Assembly (NCBI GenBank): GCA_003614675.1 | Contig: ML002329.1 | Span: 1 to 41,293, forward strand | Reading direction: 5' to 3' | Length of the DNA stretch: 41,293 bases | Source: Dimargaris cristalligena | Taxonomy: Eukaryota | In this document: in pieces, positions 2,332-35,031 of the stretch | Position numbering within the stretch: position 1 is the stretch's first letter | Layout of the letters: every line of letters starts with the position of its first letter | Notes under the pieces: model-generated | What the model saw: only the letters and a program-made list of their open reading frames with translations | The model's database searches: none | Told to the model about the DNA's origin: nothing | Program-made: the position numbers and the translations under genes

Positions 2332-3619
2332 ATGTTTAAGTTGACCTACCTACTTCTCACGCTACCGGCCATTGGCCTGCTAACTTCTACGGTTTTGGGA
2401 TCCCCTGTTCCCAGTCAAGGTTATCAGTCCGACGGGCTCGGCACTTTCAACTACTTTCTTTTGGTTGGTGATACCGGTGCTGAAATTGGACGCCGATGCG
2501 AGGAGGCCGGGATTGAAATTCCCTACACTTTCGGTGATCGTGATGCCCCTTCCACCAAACTTGCCCACCGTCAGCTCGAGGCCATGATTCAAGCTCAACA
2601 ACAGAACCAAAAAGCCCTTCCCAATCAAACTGAGGATGTATTGGATGAAATTCGAGGAGCCAGTATTATCACTGGAGATGTAAGTTAAGCCCCATAATTG
2701 CTGGGTCCCCGATATGAATAGTTACGTTGTTGCTGAATATACACTAGTATTGGAATGGCATTATCGACCCACTCTAACATCTGGGACTTGAATGTATGGA
2801 CATTTGACTTTGTCTCTCTTTATAATATAGATTCAAACTCGCTTCTGGAACTATGTTCGCCAGCCCGAGCTCACATCCGTCGCTCGCCAGGCCATTAAGG
2901 AGTTTGCCGGATCGTTCACCCATTCCCAAACCGAGCAATTGCTCAACGAATTTCTTCTCGGAAGCGTCATGTCGGTCCAAGTCAAAAAGACTGACACTGG
3001 AGTCTTGGCAGATTCTTCCCTTCAGCACAACGTTTTTCCCGGGCTCTTCCGATTGGGTAATTCCGAGTTGGCTATGAGCCTATTGGCCCCAGCCCAAACC
3101 ATGGTTCAGCTAATATTAGGAAGTAGCAGTGACACAGACGATTCCTATCCCTTTGAACAGGCTCTCTGGGTGTTCTATGCTTGGCAAACCCAGCTAAATT
3201 GGTCCATCAAGGTTCTGGCCATTAAGGGGGACATGGATTCCTTGACGAAACTGTGGAATATGGAATGGTCCCAGTTCTTGAAGCCCAACGATATTTTCAC
3301 CTCGGCCATGTGGGCATTTTGGTTCAACCAACCCATGGCCACCAAATTTCTGATGGAGAAGGTGAAAAACCCGCACCAGTTAGTGCCTAGCCTACGTAAA
3401 CTCCATGCCCACCTTCTTAAATGGAGCAACGCCACGAATGCGGACACCAGGGAGAAACGGCGCACCGTTATTTTGGCCAAATCGGCGTCAAGTTTTAACT
3501 CGGGGCTGTTCTTTGACGAATTCGCCCTGCCTGGTCTCATGGACAGCCCTATTGAGGAGAGCCGGGAAGCTATTCTGGACGCGATGGAAAATCAACTGAC
3601 TTTCAGCTTCACCTACTAA
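2332..3619 (+). CDS. Secreted hypothetical protein, 2 exons, ~378 aa
   Basis: join(2332..2679,2831..3619). GTAAGT donor at 2680 and TAG acceptor ending 2830 keep the frame (…IITGD|IQTRFWNYV…). Hydrophobic signal peptide MFKLTYLLLTLPAIGLLTSTVLG-SP. No recognisable domain. Confidence 0.8.
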
Positions 3620-4818: not shown

Positions 4819-6302
4819 CTATAGGGGTAGTTGGGACTCTAATAACAACTTCTGGGTAAGTGCATTAGGTAGAAAGGCCGATCCATCTGCTTGAAATAGC
4901 GTATTAATCACTGAGTGCCGTACCCGAAATGCCAACTGAGGGAGCCCATGATGCACTCGGCCTGCATAGACCATCCGCTGGGCATCAAATGTACCGTGGC
5001 ACAAATGCGGATCTGTTACTAGAGGCTCCCCCAGACCACCGAGAAACATCGTGTAAGCGCATTCGAATCCTAGTTGCCGGGCGCATAATATTGGAACTCC
5101 ATCATCATCAGAACTGAAAAATTCAAATGCGAGATAGGACCATTGATCTAAATCATACTCCAATACCACCATGTAAAAGAAATTCTGCATCGAAGTGGAC
5201 CAATAATCCTCGCCTTGCTTCTGCAATATTGTGATAAAGCGGTCTAATTCTGGGATACAATTGTTGGCCCCCAATGCGGTGATGATTTCGGCGACTAGCT
5301 GGGTCTTAACAGCAGCGCCGAGTATTCGTTGGGGACGAATCCATTGGCGGCTGACTATATCCAAAAGGGTATTAGTGATTGCGAATGGGACCTGGTCCAC
5401 GATCAATTCATCGTCGGCATCCACGTAGCCTTTGGTCATACGGAAAAGAAGCTGTGTTACTAGTTCCACCTGACCCTGGAGGGCCATAAACACTAGCGGA
5501 AAGGCCAAATACTGCTGATGGGCGGGGAGTTGGTTGTAGCAAAGGTAGCCCCAGTCGTCTTTGACCTCGGCCAGTACAGTTAGTAAATCGGGGGAGGCAG
5601 TTAGTAACTGATCCCCCCGTGTGGTAGCATCTGAAGTTAGCCTGTTACTTTGCAAACGTCTCCCCTCCCAACCGATCCCCATTTGCTTGAGGTGTTGGTA
5701 AACTTCGTACATTAGGGCGGTATTATATTCCTGTGCCAATAACGTTTGAACGGCCAATATTAGAGTGGAACTATCCCAGGAAAATGTCATGGCTTGATCA
5801 ATTTTGGCCCAATCCGACTGGCGCTGTTAGTTTGCCGGCGCGAGTAAATTTTACCATGTATAAATAAATATTATTTATATTCGTTAGAAATGTGCACTTA
5901 TTTGACGTAATTGGAGCTATATGGAAACTTGGGTTAGCACTGTTATCCGATGCTACCCCATTAGGTATAGCTCCTATGTTAATTTATTATAAACAATGTT
6001 ACAGTTATACTTACTTTCAATATAGGTTTGAGTTTTGGGGTCGCGGCGGCATAGGACCAGCCCATGCGGTGGGATAGACCATAGTGGAATACGTCGCTGA
6101 CAGACAGGCGGTTAAGCACTTCATTAATGATTTCGGGGGGTAGGTCTTGAATCGAACGAGTCTCAAGTTGTGTATATAGTGTTTCTATAGTCGGCTGGGG
6201 GGTTGTGGTTGGGCTGGGGGAAGAGGTTTGTAGTGAAGAAGCGACGGAGTGGGCAGTCAGCCATAGACACAGTGACAACAGAGTGTGGTTGTTAACTAAC
6301 AT
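4819..6302 (-). CDS. Secreted protein with N-terminal F-box-like motif, 2 exons, ~430 aa
   Basis: complement(join(4819..5823 or 5817,6015..6302)). Phase-0 GTAAGT donor after ...PILK; two in-frame CAG acceptors are possible. Signal peptide MLVNNHTLLSLCLWLTAHSVAS, then a Ser/Thr/Pro linker, then SIQDLPPEIINEVLNRLSVSDVFHYGLSHRMGW (F-box-like). Confidence 0.75.
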
Positions 6303-7226
6303 TTTCCAATAACCAATGTTTAAAACTCAAGTACTGAAGCACTGGTAATTAAATAGATGGATGAAAAAGACAATGTAAGTGGTTGTAAAAGATTGGACTG
6401 ATTAAAGCAAAATGGCCAACAATGATACCTGGATATACAGGGGGGTAGTTCTGCCTCGTTTTATAAAGTAACTATAATCCACTAGTTTGCCTATGTGCCA
6501 AGAAAACTGGAATATCCAATAATAAAGAGCTTTCTAGGGCAATAACAGTGGAATAATCATATTATTTTGATCAATGGGCATCGGTTGAGTATCACAAAGC
6601 TAGCAGGTGTTACGATACTGACTATATAACCACAGTGGTTGACATGGCCAAGGCAGAAGAATGGCTTGTCCCCTCCTCGCTCGTCATACTGTAGGTAATA
6701 TGGACGGGAAATCCCATCCATACAGATCGCTTTTGGGATCTGGGCCCAATAGCTTGGCCATTAACCCTGAAAAATAAACAGCGGGCCATATAAGTTGGTT
6801 TGGGTTGTCGTCAAGCTTATGCCCTTAAAATTAAATCATTTGGGCGCCCCCATTCTAGGCGGATTGTAAATTTATTACTTAAAAGTAGGCCAACTAATAC
6901 CAACCAAGCCCATCCCACTTTAGCATCCTTATGGGTGAATAGCAGCCATGTTTCTACTAAAGCCTGCTCTATTTGGGATATATTTTGGGACAATTAAGAA
7001 AATGAGACCAAACTACCGATTTAGTATCCAGCTTTTTCCTAGCCGAGGCCTATTGACGACAAATATTCAGCGTGGTTGGGATGCCCTTGCCTTTTGTTAC
7101 ATTATCCGGCCATTTCCAATCCGAACCACCCTTAGTCGTATCTCGATAAGTCGCTGTCATTTATTCTTTGCTGCTACCCACTATTACCCATTTCTACGGC
7201 TACCTCCATCCGAACTCCTCTCCGAC

Positions 7227-17928: not shown

Positions 17929-20900
17929 TTAATTTTTCGGGGCCACTGAGTCCATAAACTCCTTAATTCGTGGAAAGTGCCGGGGCACAATTTGGTAAGC
18001 GCCCGCGGCGGCCGGTGATTTTTGAATCAGGGTTTGGCAAGCCGCGAAGAGTTCGGCGTCCGGCTCCGCCGTGTATACTGCCGCACCCGGAGTATGCATG
18101 GCTGCCGTGGCCGCTGTGCAAGCCGCATCCGCCCAGCCGGCCAACAGCCGGAAAGCATCGAGGCGATTTTCGGCGGATAAGGAATCATTGAGGTTGGAAT
18201 GAGCCGATAGGAGGCGGGTTTGCAAGAACTGACACAGCCGCAGGACCTGGAGAAAGGCGAAGCGACTTTGCGGTACGCTGGCGATTAGAAATCCGGTGAT
18301 AAGGACTTCGTGGAGGCGGCTGTGTTTGAGGATTTCCGCATACAAGGGGCGGATTTCGGATATGATGCAGCTAACGTAGGATTGGTAGAAGGCATCCACC
18401 GCTTGGGTCGACGGTGGTGAGCCCGAAAGGGAAGTGGAGGAGACGGCGTTATTGAGGTAGACTTGGAAGACGGGGAGGGCCTGCATGAGGGCATGTAGGT
18501 CCAGGCGGAGTAGGCGGTCCAGCACGTATTGCCCGAATATTTGTAGGGCGATTTCATGGGTAACTACCAACTTGCTGATTTCCTCAATCAGGGCCACGGT
18601 ATTCACCTGAGAGCGGTAGGACTCCTGCATAATCTCCTCGGCTTCCTCGTCTGACCAATAGTCGAATTGGCCAGTGACATCGTGATCGAGGGCGTTACTA
18701 AGGGCTTGATATACCTCTTTGAGACGGGCTTGATTGGCGCCAATAATCTGGGACAGATTCACCATGAAATTCTGGATAATTTCTTTGTCGATTTTATGGA
18801 CCTTAAAGTCGCGCGTTTCGATCATCAATTTGGCGCGAGTACCGAGTTTGACCATAGTGGCTGCCCAGATGAGATTTTGGTCGGCCTGGAATTAAATTAT
18901 TAGCGACGGTGGTTTAAGTATGCAGAGAAGTCAGCGTGGACGAGGGATGGTGGTTTTTAGAAGTGAATGGGTAGAATACTATTATTATTATTATTGGGGG
19001 GCGGGGCATTCACTAGCCTCGAGTAAATTCCGAATAGCCCCGATAATCATATAAATAGAACAGACGCTAAAAATAGTATCACTTAGCCCTTGGCAATACC
19101 CATTAAAACTTACCTTGGGACTAACAAAATTGGCCACGTCCTGGATTAGGATACTCAGAAGTTGAAGGGAAAAGGTTTGGCAGACGCAGTCACTATAGAG
19201 AATCATGCCGATTTCGCTATATACGGGAATTCAAAGACGGCAAACAAGGGCCTCCAAATAGAGGTTCGATAAAAATAGGGATTAGTGGGGCTAAATAGTA
19301 TGTTTTCAATCCTGCTCTTAACATTGGTACACATACTCGTGCAGAAAGGTGAAGCAATCTCATACTTACCCATACACAGGACCGTTTTGATCCACCGTGT
19401 TGAAGAATTTCTTAATGTCGTTGACACGCCGCTCATCCATGACTTGGTTGCGGAAGCAGGCGTCCAGATACCAGACCAGGAGGTAGCAGGGATCCTTGTC
19501 GTAAATCTGGGGTGTAATTGTGGCGAAGTAGACCAATTTGGGCAGACGGTTAGTTGATTAGTTGTGATAGGGGGATATAATAAAACCAGCATGGTATACT
19601 CCAACGATTCACCAATAGACAACATGAAACGACCGGGCCGACTAAAAGGCCTCTCAGGTAATGGATGCGAGGAATATTGGCCTACCTCGCGAATGTCGTT
19701 TTCGTGCATTTTCATCAGCAGGTCGAAGCGCAAATTACAGTAAGCTTTATCGCCGGTTTGTACGAACCCCTGGCGGAGCACACCCAGCACAGTGTTGTAG
19801 AGGGAAATGTTGGTGTGAATAGCACCAGCCAGGGTTACTACACTGGGGTGGTTTCGTCTGGGGGGATAACGGAGAGGCGACATAAGGGAGAACGGGGATT
19901 AGAACATGGAGGGCACGGTGTAATTTAATGACGATGACCCCCATTGAAGGGGATCCGATAATTAAGCGCTGAGGGATAGGGCCCTGCTGGTATGGATCTG
20001 GCTTTACCTTTGTTGAATGATAGAGGGTACGTCAGTGGGTCTCAACTCCCGACCCAGGGTTTTAAGGGAAGGGTCGTTACGATAAACTTCAAGCAGGGGA
20101 GTGACAAAGGCGTGGAACAGGCTGGGCTCGGTAGTCCACATATACCGCTTCACCTCAACGGGACAAACCTGGGGATCGGCCATGCGCAGCAGTGTATTAA
20201 GAAACAAGTATACGGGGGAGAGGGAGTGGTTAACGAGGGGATATGTATATGTGGTTAATGAATAGCCGAAGAGGGAGTTTGCAACAGGCTCGGAGATTCA
20301 AGCAAGAATAAGGGGAAACTTGAAGGTTTGGTCTTACGTCGAAGAGTTCGGGGAGGCTGACAATAGTCTGCGTGGCATCGGGGGTGATGCGTTCGGGCTG
20401 GGACTTTAGCAGCCGTAGAGGAATGTCCCGCAGCTGTGGAATGTGTAGATAGGGCAGGGTTTGTTCCAGGAGCTTGTCGAACCTGAATTGATTTCCCAAG
20501 AGAGGAACGTATACAACGGACAGATAGTCGGTTAAGCTTGGGTTGCGCAGAGGGGTTCGGGATAGCAGTGGATGTGGCCCGCGTCTCCGGCCGTTTCGAT
20601 AATAATCGCTAAGATACGGTAAACAACCCCCCGTTTGAATCGCCGCAAAGAGAGGCAAACAGACCATGTATTGCGCCCGTGCCTTTATCGTCCAGCTAGA
20701 AATCATATATGGAGAAGTTAGGTAACCCAATGGGAGTAAAAAACTTACTGCTCCTTGGTCAGGCCGGCCTCGATCTTGGCCATGATGGCCTTCTTGAGAG
20801 CGTCCAGACAACTGGTGTGGACCAAGCGACGTGAACAGCCGGAGGTGTCGAGAATAGGATAGGCGGCTTCGACCTGCGGCTTATGGAAGCCGAATTTCTG

Positions 20901-27805: not shown

Positions 27806-29290
27806 ATGCGTCTACCTATTATTCTGACCTGTTCACTCAGTGGACTTGTTTTGCTCAGTGTGGTACAAACCACCCGAGGTGAAACCCATTCCGCACCAAC
27901 ATCCCTAGCATTTTCCCCACAATTGAGTATCCCTACTTACACTGTGGTTACCCTAACGCCTTCGCCAACCGCGGACTTACCCACCGCCATGGGTACCAAC
28001 CCCCCAACCGATGGCGCCCGTCCCACTCCGCCCCAGTCCGAGGGGCCCCTGAAACAAAGCCCACCACCATTGCCCAAACGACCGACGGATAGAGGCATCT
28101 CTACTCTGCACCAACCGTTATCCGCTATACCCAACTCCCTGGAGGTCAGCCCGGCCGGTTTGGCCATGTCCGCACAAGCCCAGATCTTATCCGAAAACGG
28201 CATTCCCGGCCCCTCTCCTTCCAAAATAAACCAAGCCGAAATGCGGAAACAGGTATGGCGGGAGTTAAACCAATTTTTGGAAAACTACCGAGCGGAATCA
28301 GCCAACAACAACAACCGTCACCAACCCACCGTACTGCCGGATACTAGACCGCCCGAGGCACATACGTCCCCCCTTCTGCAGCCCATCTTACTCTCACCTG
28401 TTCTTCAGTTTCAGAACTCTATGCAAAACATCGACCCCGTGGAAACCATTAAACAACACGATGCGACAATTCGGGAGATTGTCCAAAAGGGCATCGAAGC
28501 GATCGTCCGGAACGAAAACTCGCAAACTACCACCACGGCTAGCAACCTCGAAGATCTCGAGAAATACCCCGAAGCCATCAAGGCCGAGCTCGTTAAAGCG
28601 GTGGAGCCCATCCAGCAACGCAAAGCTTTATTCGAACAAGCCATGGCTGCGGTCATTGACCAACTGAAAATGATTAATCCCCGCATACCCCCGCTCCTTA
28701 GCGAACTAAGTCAAATGGGCAATGCCACCGATGTAGAACGCATGCGGGTAATTAATGAGCTCCGGGCCATTGCCTTGGCGAAGGGGAAGGGAGCGTTACT
28801 GTTGGGTCTAATCCCCGACGTCCAGGCCGTTTATGACGCCACCCAGAAACTGTGGGTGTGGGAAAACACCGCCGTCAAGGGTTGGCCCAACATGAAGAAA
28901 ATCCTGGATCACGACTTCCGGATCCGTTTACCCATCGAAGTGTTCAAGGCCGCTACCTTTGAGGAAGGCACGGCCCAACTCACCCTGAATCGGCGTAAGC
29001 ATGATATCAATCGCCAAATGCCCCCAATTTACCTGGAAATGGCCACCCCGCAGATCCACCATACCTCTTCGGATGCCAAACGGAATTGGTGGGAGCAGGA
29101 GCTGAGGCGCGCGGACGAAACATTCCAGGAAATGGTAGCGCTGTATAGGGTGGTTTGGGATTATTTGGAATCGATTAAGCAGTTGAAAGAACAGGCCAAG
29201 CATAATTTGCCGTTGGTCCAACAGTTGTGGGAGCTCCATAGGTACTTGTACGATGTCAAACTGAACGCGAAAACCAACTTTAAACCTTAG
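27806..29290 (+). CDS. Secreted hypothetical protein, 494 aa, Pro/Thr-rich N-terminal region and helical C-terminal region
   Basis: Long intronless ORF with signal peptide MRLPIILTCSLSGLVLLSVVQTTRG. No recognisable domain. Confidence 0.85.
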   Translation: MRLPIILTCSLSGLVLLSVVQTTRGETHSAPTSLAFSPQLSIPTYTVVTLTPSPTADLPTAMGTNPPTDGARPTPPQSEGPLKQSPPPLPKRPTDRGISTLHQPLSAIPNSLEVSPAGLAMSAQAQILSENGIPGPSPSKINQAEMRKQVWRELNQFLENYRAESANNNNRHQPTVLPDTRPPEAHTSPLLQPILLSPVLQFQNSMQNIDPVETIKQHDATIREIVQKGIEAIVRNENSQTTTTASNLEDLEKYPEAIKAELVKAVEPIQQRKALFEQAMAAVIDQLKMINPRIPPLLSELSQMGNATDVERMRVINELRAIALAKGKGALLLGLIPDVQAVYDATQKLWVWENTAVKGWPNMKKILDHDFRIRLPIEVFKAATFEEGTAQLTLNRRKHDINRQMPPIYLEMATPQIHHTSSDAKRNWWEQELRRADETFQEMVALYRVVWDYLESIKQLKEQAKHNLPLVQQLWELHRYLYDVKLNAKTNFKP

Positions 29291-33435: not shown

Positions 33436-35031
33436 ATGTTCCGCACCATTTCCCGGTTGACCATGTTATGTTTATGTATTGCGATTATTAGCATATCGGT
33501 TTTAAATTTGGGAGTCCAAGTTTCTGGCCACCCACGCCCTGGTGGCGAAGTCCCGTCATCTAATAGTATGCCGCCATCTGAAGCGTACTCAGCCTTGGGT
33601 GGTAAAGTAAATAAGGGCTCTCAAGGAGACAATGCCCAAGATTCGCAACTCCTGTCCCTGCCTCTGGAACTATTCAATAAGCTGGTCGCCGATTTATCGT
33701 GGGAGGGACTTTGTAACCTTGCCTTGACCTCTAAAAAAGGATACTCTATGGTATTGAGCAGCTATCGAATGTAATTACTGAATAAGGTAAACATCTGAAT
33801 CACCCCCCCCCCTTCAGGACGTTAGCATATAATCAAAGACCGACCTTTCACATCATTGGGACTACGTGCCGGTTTATCGAGCGCCAGATTTTTCGACATA
33901 GTTACTGTTGCAATAGCACTTTTATATATTCTATATTTTAAGTATATCGTTACACAGTTCCTTATCTAACAATAATTTATGGTATCCTCATTTGCCCTTA
34001 TATTTCCATTTGTGGTTCAGTACAAAGATGATTTCATCAGACCTCTTTTGGAAAGTGGCCCGATGGATCCCCGTAAACTTAAATCGATTCTACCGGTGCA
34101 ACTAGATGGGGCGGTACTGAGGAATACCCGGCTTAAGGTCATGGCGACTGTGGAACCCTTGGTGCCTTTTCATTATAGCGACCAAGAGAATATTCGTCGG
34201 CAATTCCAGAATGACGCTACATTGGCCACTAAGCTAGCAAATCTCAATGATATTGCGTCGGACTGGTCGTACATTAATTACACCCAACTAACCGACCGCG
34301 AGAAATGCAAAATATTCCCGCTGATATATACGCTATCAAATATGCCTGTCGAATACACTCTGCACCTGTACAAAAAGCTGTATATTAGGGCCAACGACCG
34401 TGAATTAATTGGTGAGGCTGCCGAAATCCAGGACGACCCCTTACTAAGCTCAATCACCGAATCGTTATCTGCCCTGAACGACAGCCCTATCAGTTCCACC
34501 CTAAGTAACGAGCTGTTGTTAGGAGTCCTTGCGTCCCTTGCTGTGACCGGCCATTCCGCGCAGTTGCTCTGCTTGGGAAGTCAGGCTAGGCGGCTTCGCT
34601 TCCCTTTGTCGAAAACCATGTTGGAGTTCATGGCGCAATTGGTCCTGGAATATGGTGAACCCGAATTGCATCAGTGGGGCGTAAACCATGCTGGACTGTT
34701 GTTTCGAGCCCAAGCCAAAGCCCAACTTCTGGGCTTCCCAAGGGCCACCCAGCTGCTTCCTAATGGGAGACCCGCAATGAAATTTCAAGGGAAGCTATTC
34801 CTTGGCGAATTAAGCAGTTATAGGTTCATCTTTCCACATTGTTATGGAGACGGTACCCCTGCGCTGGCCCTTCAGGTTCGGCGATCAACAGCCACTAGGT
34901 TAGCAAGTGAATTGGGCATCCCGGGGCCTGACTCCATTCACTCGATTGGGCTCCCCCAGGCCAAAGTAATGAAGCTGCTTCAATCGGTTGATATGGAAGT
35001 GCTGACGTGGTTGGCCAATGCTGTGGATTAG
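33436..35031 (+). pseudogene. Secreted F-box-like protein, paralogue of 4819-6302, with an in-frame TAA at 33772-33774 (pseudogene unless alternatively spliced)
   Basis: join(33436..33786,34021..35031), phase-0 intron. Signal peptide MFRTISRLTMLCLCIAIISISVLNLGVQVSG-HP; F-box-like LLSLPLELFNKLVADLSWEGLCNLALTSKKGY. Exon 2 is fully open. An alternative phase-0 donor GTATTG at 33751 would skip the stop. Confidence 0.7.

Follow-up and report, generated by a model that had tools for sequence, protein, structure and literature searches.

Agrobacterium VirF is reportedly an F-box effector that is delivered to the SCF ubiquitin ligase of its host, and Legionella AnkB and the Ralstonia RipG/GALA proteins are likewise delivered F-box proteins that enter the host SCF. 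Ralstonia RipG7, for example, is reported to bind SKP1-like proteins of Arabidopsis (PMC4617103). The closest described system in a eukaryotic parasite is represented by the SSGP-71 proteins of the Hessian fly (Mayetiola destructor), which are described as candidate effectors that typically carry an N-terminal F-box followed by leucine-rich repeats (LRRs) and for which an interaction with Skp proteins of the host is reported (PMC4617103); candidate effector genes of this insect in general are reported to be signal-peptide-encoding (PMC7330099). With regard to early-diverging fungi, the Rhizophagus clarus protein NLS_30765 (542 aa), which is predicted to be secreted and carries an F-box-like domain (PF12937), was proposed to interfere with the host SCF (PMC4746824), and this in-silico candidate was the only F-box effector-like case from a fungus among the publications retrieved, as far as their records describe it. 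No paper joining Dimargaris and F-box was found, the term secreted F-box effectors likewise led to none, and the titles and abstracts retrieved on F-box effectors in mycoparasite secretomes held nothing relevant.

Here we describe a gene (the target gene) from a stretch of 41,293 nucleotides of Dimargaris cristalligena DNA (positions 1 to 41,293 of contig ML002329.1, assembly GCA_003614675.1; hereafter the window), together with the family to which it belongs. The producer, which the initial annotation had correctly taken to be an early-diverging fungus, is a haustorial mycoparasite; members of the Dimargaritales are described as parasitizing Mucoromycota and Ascomycota by means of an appressorium and a haustorium (PMC9866270). 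As far as SSGP-71 is described, the two families are alike in that both belong to a eukaryotic parasite, are large and diversified, and place an N-terminal F-box before a target-binding domain, the latter being presumed in the case of D. cristalligena. However, SSGP-71 proteins have LRRs behind the F-box, whereas the D. cristalligena proteins have a helical domain of about 330 aa with no LRR, Pfam or PDB match; the host is a plant in the first case and a fungus in the second, and there is no sequence relation between the families beyond the F-box. Skp binding, which is reported for SSGP-71 (PMC4617103), is for the D. cristalligena family predicted from sequences and models.

The proposed mode of action resembles that of AnkB and RipG, but these effectors reach the host by type III or type IV injection and have ankyrin or LRR repeats as their C-terminal domains, whereas the D. 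cristalligena family has a signal-peptide-like N-terminus and an unmatched helical domain. Like the D. cristalligena proteins, R. clarus NLS_30765 is a predicted secreted F-box-like protein of an early-diverging fungus; unlike them, it stands alone as an in-silico candidate from a plant symbiont, compared here by its description only, which in the part available mentions no family expansion (PMC4746824). Endogenous F-box proteins (Skp2, Fbw7, Cdc4 and the FBXL/FBXO proteins) share with the target the three-helix fold, the L-P-x-E loop and a layout in which the F-box is N-terminal and a recognition domain is C-terminal. On the other hand, they have no signal peptide and end in WD40, LRR or other known folds, while the D. 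cristalligena family combines a signal-like N-terminus with a domain that matches none of these. As the C-terminal domain is unrelated to those of the known effectors and no relatives were found outside D. cristalligena, the family is, judged by its sequences, not a member of the SSGP-71, AnkB or RipG families and would only work like them. The initial annotation had proposed a secreted F-box effector with reference to bacterial and viral pathogens; F-box mimicry does provide the precedent for this framing, but eukaryotic F-box effectors with signal peptides were already known, on the account given of Hessian fly SSGP-71 (PMC4617103).

Structure of the target gene

The target gene is located on the minus strand of the window (6302..4819) and consists of two exons that encode a product of 430 aa. 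Exon 1 (6302..6015, minus strand; 96 aa) opens at the ATG at 6302; an in-frame TGA is found 8 codons 5' of Met1, and Met1 and Met80 are the only Met codons of the exon-1 frame. The intron (6014..5824, minus strand; 191 nt, phase 0) is canonical, starting with GTAAGT and ending with CTAACAG, which includes a CTAAC branch-like box, and the public gene model P0028 splices identical exon ends at this junction. Exon 2 (5823..4819, minus strand) encodes 334 aa and the stop codon, so that the frame is open over 430 codons.

Three parts can be distinguished in the product of exon 1. Residues 1-21 (6240..6302, minus strand) form a signal-peptide-like N-terminus, as judged by hydropathy, a helix in the AlphaFold model and the family alignment. 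Residues 22-50 (6153..6239, minus strand) represent a Ser/Thr/Pro-rich low-complexity linker, recognized from the sequence and from low pLDDT values (approx. 50-57 across the blocks covering residues 21-50, and < 50 at residues 25-30 and 32-36); among relatives this linker is variable in length and aligns poorly. Residues 51-96 (6015..6152, minus strand) represent the F-box, which was identified by Pfam, AlphaFold, fold search and a family profile. The initial annotation had described positions 4819..6302 as encoding a signal peptide, a linker, an F-box-like motif and about 330 aa of unrecognized domain. Its coordinates and its description of these parts are correct, the order of the parts is supported in silico, and the motif that it quoted is located at residues 51-82. 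Because a paralogue in the same window and 11 database relatives share the order of parts, the architecture represents more than a chance arrangement.

A diversified family restricted to D. cristalligena

A second copy is located on the plus strand of the window. Its exon 1 (33436..33750, plus strand) encodes a signal-like N-terminus, a linker and an F-box-like motif (weak Pfam match to F-box_4, E 0.21), and its exon 2 (34021..35031, plus strand) encodes a C-terminal domain of the target's family; the 5' splice site used here, with ATG at the exon end and GTATTG at the intron start, is a putative choice. Exon 2 of this paralogue matched exon 2 of the target in a BLASTP comparison (E 8e-09, 23% identity over 264 columns) as well as with phmmer (E 1.9e-07), and was the sole other match among the 475 ORFs of the window (≥ 40 aa).

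A profile built from these two C-terminal domains was then compared with HMMER against 1.84 billion representatives, yielding 18 matches at E ≤ 0.001, 11 at E ≤ 1e-10 and 4 at E ≤ 1e-30. All 18 clusters contain D. cristalligena proteins only, from two assemblies, and no relative from another organism was found among the 1.84 billion representatives at E ≤ 0.001. The family thus comprises at least 18 diverged clusters, whose members show 15-35% identity to the target. A metagenome scan with the single target protein yielded 43 pattern matches and no relative, and a word-based search with alignment A3, in which the best 7,999 candidates were scored, yielded 2 matches, both of them known members.

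A hydrophobic core of approx. 10-16 residues was found at the N-terminus of all 13 N-complete members (11 database relatives and the 2 window copies), the N-truncated relatives being P0006, P0009/P0024, P0013, P0015 and P0019. The initial annotation had spoken of exported F-box proteins in the plural, and the expanded family with its consistently signal-like N-termini bears this out. Overall, an export-signal-like segment and an F-box appear to be joined in a species-restricted and diversified family.

The C-terminal domain

Exon 2 did not match any Pfam family at E ≤ 10. Its AlphaFold model, which was built on a shallow alignment of 18 rows, showed a pLDDT of 85.9 and a pTM of 0.89 and contains approx. 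17 helices and a small three-stranded sheet; this sheet is formed by the most conserved motifs of the family, near W91/Y93 and R300/V301. Comparison of the model against the PDB with Foldseek yielded nothing at E ≤ 0.001, the top rows being unrelated helical proteins with TM values of approx. 0.2, and the best VIA-align match (Z 4.9) was under the noise level of this tool for helical models. Recognition in the ESM Atlas was also low (1235), and the leads, none of them usable, were either unnamed or PPR-like and below 0.9, apart from one unnamed cluster at 0.91. The fold of exon 2 may be new, a reading for which a shallow alignment and a negative search fall short of proof. The domain is presumed to represent the substrate-binding part of the protein.

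Evidence for an F-box in the target and its relatives

The target matched the Pfam F-box profile PF00646 with E 6e-4 and 20.1 bits, i.e., 0.4 bit short of the cut-off of 20.5, over profile positions 1-23 of 43, and matched PF12937 with E 0.087. When 17 relatives were scanned with the Pfam F-box profiles, one was found above the cut-off (P0014, 25.0 bits) and two showed weak matches (P0031, E 0.065; P0020, E 0.18), while the other 14, including the closest relative P0007, showed no Pfam F-box match at E ≤ 1. In 9 of the 18 clusters, members are labelled "F-box domain-containing protein" by UniProt. A profile of 11 F-box stretches from the family was more informative when compared against the sequences of the PDB, as 18 of the 20 matches at E ≤ 10 were F-box proteins (best E 0.0037), including FBXW7, SKP2, FBXL5, FBXO31, FBXL3, FBXL17 and others. 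These matches emerged only when the F-box stretch was profiled alone; the full-length family profile A2 gave 4 chance-level matches in the PDB (NEK2 and a designed filament; E > 1) and no F-box.

The L-P-x-E loop is a hallmark Skp1-contact element of the F-box. In the alignment of 11 members, both the Pro and the Glu of this loop are invariant (11/11), the residue before the Pro is Leu or Ile in 10 of the 11, and Leu21 is present in at least 90%. The family alignment thus shows a conserved loop as well as conserved hydrophobic helix positions, and no other feature in the N-terminal half is as well conserved as the loop, in a family that is otherwise only approx. 20% identical.

In the AlphaFold model of exon 1, which was built on a shallow family alignment of 13 rows, residues 51-96 showed pLDDT values of 87-93 and form the L-P-x-E loop and helices at residues 56-65, 68-77, 79-87 and 89-95. 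We compared this model with VIA-align against 48,161 chains without a prefilter. Ranks 1-12 were all taken by entries titled F-box/Skp1 complexes (Z 3.9-5.2, rmsd 2.0-4.5, 40-50 residues aligned), i.e., in order of rank, AnkB, FBXL17, FBXL2, FBH1, Fbw7, FBXL5, Skp2, FBXO3, Cdc4, FBXO42, Skp2 and cyclin F, and F-box/Skp1 entries accounted for 16 of the top 20 (Z 3.3-5.2). The top match was a chain of the AnkB-Skp1 entry 5k35 (Z 5.2, rmsd 2.5, 50 residues), matched by entry title and tied with other F-box chains. VIA-align warns that Z values < 8 can be common, and the absolute values are low here because the domain comprises only approx. 45 residues; the weight of the argument from this model is in the clean enrichment of F-box entries and not in the score. 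With Foldseek, all three matches listed for the F-box model were F-box/Skp1 entries (E 3-9). We accept a three-helix F-box fold for the modelled target, and the F-box-like motif that had initially been read from the sequence is backed by PF00646, by the profile comparison against the PDB and by the fold search.

One possible explanation for these data is that the protein enters the secretory pathway (i.e., ends in the extracellular space, the cell wall, the extrahaustorial space or a lumen) and that the F-box-like module never meets Skp1, representing instead a structural cap or some other binding surface for the C-terminal domain. This would be consistent with the signal-like N-termini of all 13 N-complete members, with the weak F-box scores of most members and with a C-terminal domain that lacks a recognized fold or function. 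It would also be consistent with the presence, in 12 of the 13 members, of an X-Pro dipeptide right behind the small residues that end the hydrophobic core and thus after the predicted cleavage site (8 of the 13 have two such dipeptides, as judged by eye), which may be associated with ordinary secretory processing. On the other hand, a module without contact to Skp1 would hardly be expected to retain an invariant Pro and Glu in precisely the Skp1-contact loop while the remainder of the family has diverged to approx. 20% identity. Moreover, the mature part of the target is Cys-poor (5 Cys among the 334 residues of exon 2) and showed no N-x-S/T sequon behind the signal in a sequence scan, features that are atypical of stable extracellular proteins. 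We thus consider a purely secretory role of the module unlikely and favor docking to Skp1 as the function that this loop would serve.

The hydrophobic N-terminus

The h-region of the target has its core at approx. residues 8-17, followed by the small residues S-V-A at residues 19-21. Kyte-Doolittle hydropathy showed a KD9 maximum of 2.12 at residue 7 and a KD19 maximum of 1.12; judged by its sequence, the segment is too short and too weak for a membrane span. The h-region and the small residues at -3/-1 fit the textbook signal rule, as judged by eye, whereas the n-region is uncharged (no K/R in residues 1-8) and does not show the basic residues expected of an n-region. The AlphaFold model places a helix at residues 6-21, and in 12 relatives the hydrophobic segment at the N-terminus aligns with residues 1-21. 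These signal calls are based on textbook rules and on conservation within the family, in which K/R occur within the first 8 residues of 12 of the 13 N-complete members. In most members, a basic residue (position 2 or 3) comes before a core of approx. 10-13 residues, behind which small residues and Pro are found. The KD19 maximum is < 1.6 in 7 of the 13 members and ranges from 1.64 to 2.32 in the remaining 6; for most members, cleaved signals fit these hydropathy values better than membrane spans would. The signal of the target, with its uncharged n-region and low KD19 maximum, is the weakest in the family.

Other fates of the target were also considered. A mitochondrial presequence is unlikely, as the segment is hydrophobic and neither amphipathic nor basic. 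Retention in the ER is unlikely because the sequence scan found no HDEL/KDEL-like tail, and a GPI anchor is unlikely because a C-terminal hydrophobic tail is absent; the mature part contains no second hydrophobic span (KD19 maximum 1.44).

As the F-box lies between Met1 and Met80 within one exon, its translation from exon 1 would necessarily include the hydrophobic N-terminus; this coupling is independent of any splice choice. It bears on a further explanation, i.e., that the target is an ordinary SCF adaptor which acts inside the parasite, either as an uncleaved anchor with a cytosolic F-box or from an alternative transcript or start that bypasses the hydrophobic segment. Such a role would fit F-box proteins in general, which normally reside in the cytosol or nucleus and some of which are membrane-tethered. 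In addition, the n-region of the target has no basic residue, so charge does not dictate its orientation, the hydrophobic segment of the window paralogue is of span length (KD19 2.32), and both public models of the target leave out the signal. However, a start at Met80 would remove most of the F-box and the exon offers no other ATG, and most members show the pattern of a cleaved signal (a core of 10-13 residues with a basic residue before it and small residues and Pro behind it) rather than that of a 20-residue N-out anchor. The restriction of the family to one species among 1.84 billion representatives is also unlike what is seen for housekeeping adaptors. Overall, a role inside the parasite seems improbable to us, and we return below to export as the fate that the N-terminus would specify.

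Comparison with public gene models

A database search with exon 2 yielded one cluster, a 233-aa "hypothetical protein" of D. cristalligena. Of the two public models of the target, P0003 starts at Met97, a Met within exon 2, and P0028 starts at Met80, inside the F-box; both are without the signal and without most or all of the F-box, and in both the 3' part is spliced into a different frame. This splicing removes the conserved columns A248, G252, A256, R300 and V301, i.e., five of the ten most conserved columns of the family, all of which are retained by a continuous exon 2. The closest paralogue, P0007, whose sequence is the same in two independent annotations, matches exon 2 with 35% identity (E 1e-49) and is colinear with it to the C-terminus; the match between exon 1 and the N-terminal part of P0007 has E 4e-12, with 42% identity over the F-box. 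As P0007 is colinear to the last residues and the five conserved columns are kept, the continuous exon 2 is, on sequence grounds, a better model than P0003 or P0028. The public model of the second window copy, P0004, is missing the first exon. Secretome surveys that rely on the public models would miss the family, since for both window copies these models drop the signal together with the F-box or the greater part of it.

We also compared the contigs of three DNA runs. The target DNA was identical in a run of the same organism from another study, which is flagged as a possible source of the window DNA, so that this identity is non-independent. Another of the three runs contained two tiny matching fragments.

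That the target copy is decaying or silent, or that its gene model is wrong, and that nothing functional is made, would be consistent with a signal that is the weakest of the family and with two public models that differ from the two-exon model at both ends, but is very improbable given the open frame of 430 codons, an intron that is canonical and also used by P0028, the colinearity with P0007 from the F-box to the C-terminus, the retention of conserved columns that the public models lose and, as a non-independent observation, the identical DNA in the same-organism run.

Proposed mode of action in the fungal host

The analysis established in silico how the gene is built and in what order its parts are arranged, that the F-box fold is present and that there is a family restricted to one species. 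We hypothesize that the members of this family are secreted mimics of SCF substrate adaptors that act in the fungal host, and that they represent good effector candidates; we would give this reading an even chance. It is favored because the signal-like N-terminus is family-wide, the Skp1-docking loop is the best-kept feature, the family is private and fast-diverging, the mature part is Cys-poor and the producer is haustorial. Under this hypothesis, the N-terminal signal peptide would route the protein into the parasite's secretory pathway, with the haustorium as the probable site, and would be cleaved near residue 21. The mature protein would then reach the cytosol of the fungal host, and its F-box would bind host Skp1, a protein that is expected to be highly conserved among fungi, and thereby become part of a host SCF ubiquitin ligase. 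The C-terminal domain of 334 aa would pick host proteins for ubiquitination, or would at least sequester Skp1, and the many diverged paralogues may differ in target specificity. Delivery into the host is plausible because D. cristalligena is a haustorial parasite of other fungi.

The steps from expression, secretion and cleavage through host uptake and Skp1 binding to an effect on host proteins are those that we infer. The evidence for the family itself is solid, and the functional reading is what we infer from it. The fuller version of the hypothesis, in which a private family is delivered at the haustorium, plugs into the host SCF via Skp1 and marks host proteins with a new substrate-binding fold, is more tentative, and we judge it to be somewhat short of an even chance.

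We know of no molecular account of how early-diverging haustorial mycoparasites control their fungal hosts. A species-restricted family that appears to combine a secretion-signal-like segment with a Skp1-docking module provides a concrete and directly testable hypothesis, i.e., hijacking of the host SCF. If true, F-box mimicry, which is known from bacteria, viruses and one insect, would extend to fungi, and haustorial delivery of such proteins would make this the first family of SCF-mimic effectors from a fungus and would provide fungus-on-fungus biotrophy in zygomycete lineages with its first molecular mechanism. The C-terminal domain, which is confidently modelled without a match to a solved structure, may furthermore represent a new substrate-recognition fold for cullin-RING ligases.

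Genomic neighborhood

The neighbors of the target are housekeeping genes, i.e., genes for an arginine methyltransferase, an N-myristoyltransferase, a class I histone deacetylase and a NELF-B-like protein. The window also contains two further orphan genes with signal-like N-termini.

Gene models of the signal-peptide F-box family

The signal is absent from the two publicly available models for the target gene (P0003 and P0028; target at 4819..6302 on the reverse strand), the F-box is lost entirely or for the most part, and the 3' ends of both models are in another frame than that of the target gene. The target gene would thus escape secretome or domain surveys that rely on these two annotations. 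A further member of this family is located at 33436..35031 on the forward strand, i.e., 27 kb from the target and on the opposite strand. The public model of this copy (P0004, 257 aa) is missing the first exon, which encodes the signal and the F-box-like motif, and also omits some of the conserved C-terminal sequence encoded by the open frame 34021..35031. The same annotation fault may affect the family members that are truncated at the N-terminus (i.e., P0006, P0009/P0024, P0013, P0015 and P0019).

X-Pro dipeptides following the predicted signal

Comparison of the N-termini of the 13 N-terminally complete family members showed an X-Pro dipeptide immediately past the predicted signal cleavage site in 12; two consecutive X-Pro dipeptides at this site (e.g., R-P-Q-P, Y-P-Y-P, Q-P-H-P) were found in 8 of the 13. 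The target shows no X-Pro at its predicted cleavage site and carries S-P-S-P at residues 28-31 instead. The post-signal dipeptides resemble a putative substrate that a dipeptidyl aminopeptidase of the late secretory pathway would remove step by step.

Other features of the window

Signal-like N-termini were also observed outside the family. A single-exon ORF of 494 aa (27806..29290, forward strand) combines such an N-terminus with a Pro-rich stretch; no family was found for it in Pfam, and its sole match in the database search was its own D. cristalligena model, making it a further orphan and a candidate secreted protein. An ORF pair on the forward strand (2332..2685 and 2831..3619), which starts with a signal-like hydrophobic N-terminus, showed neither a Pfam family nor similarity to the F-box family.

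Two tiny contigs from X6, a sequencing run labelled with another organism, were identical to window positions 5856..6006 and 6415..6500 at a depth of approx. 2; these probably represent trace carry-over and have no bearing on relatives.

Finally, two ORFs on the reverse strand (17929..19898) matched the Pfam family COBRA1 (NELF-B) with E values of 3.4e-06 and 1.5e-10. As yeasts are not known to possess the negative elongation factor complex, a NELF-B-like gene in the early-diverging D. cristalligena may deserve attention.
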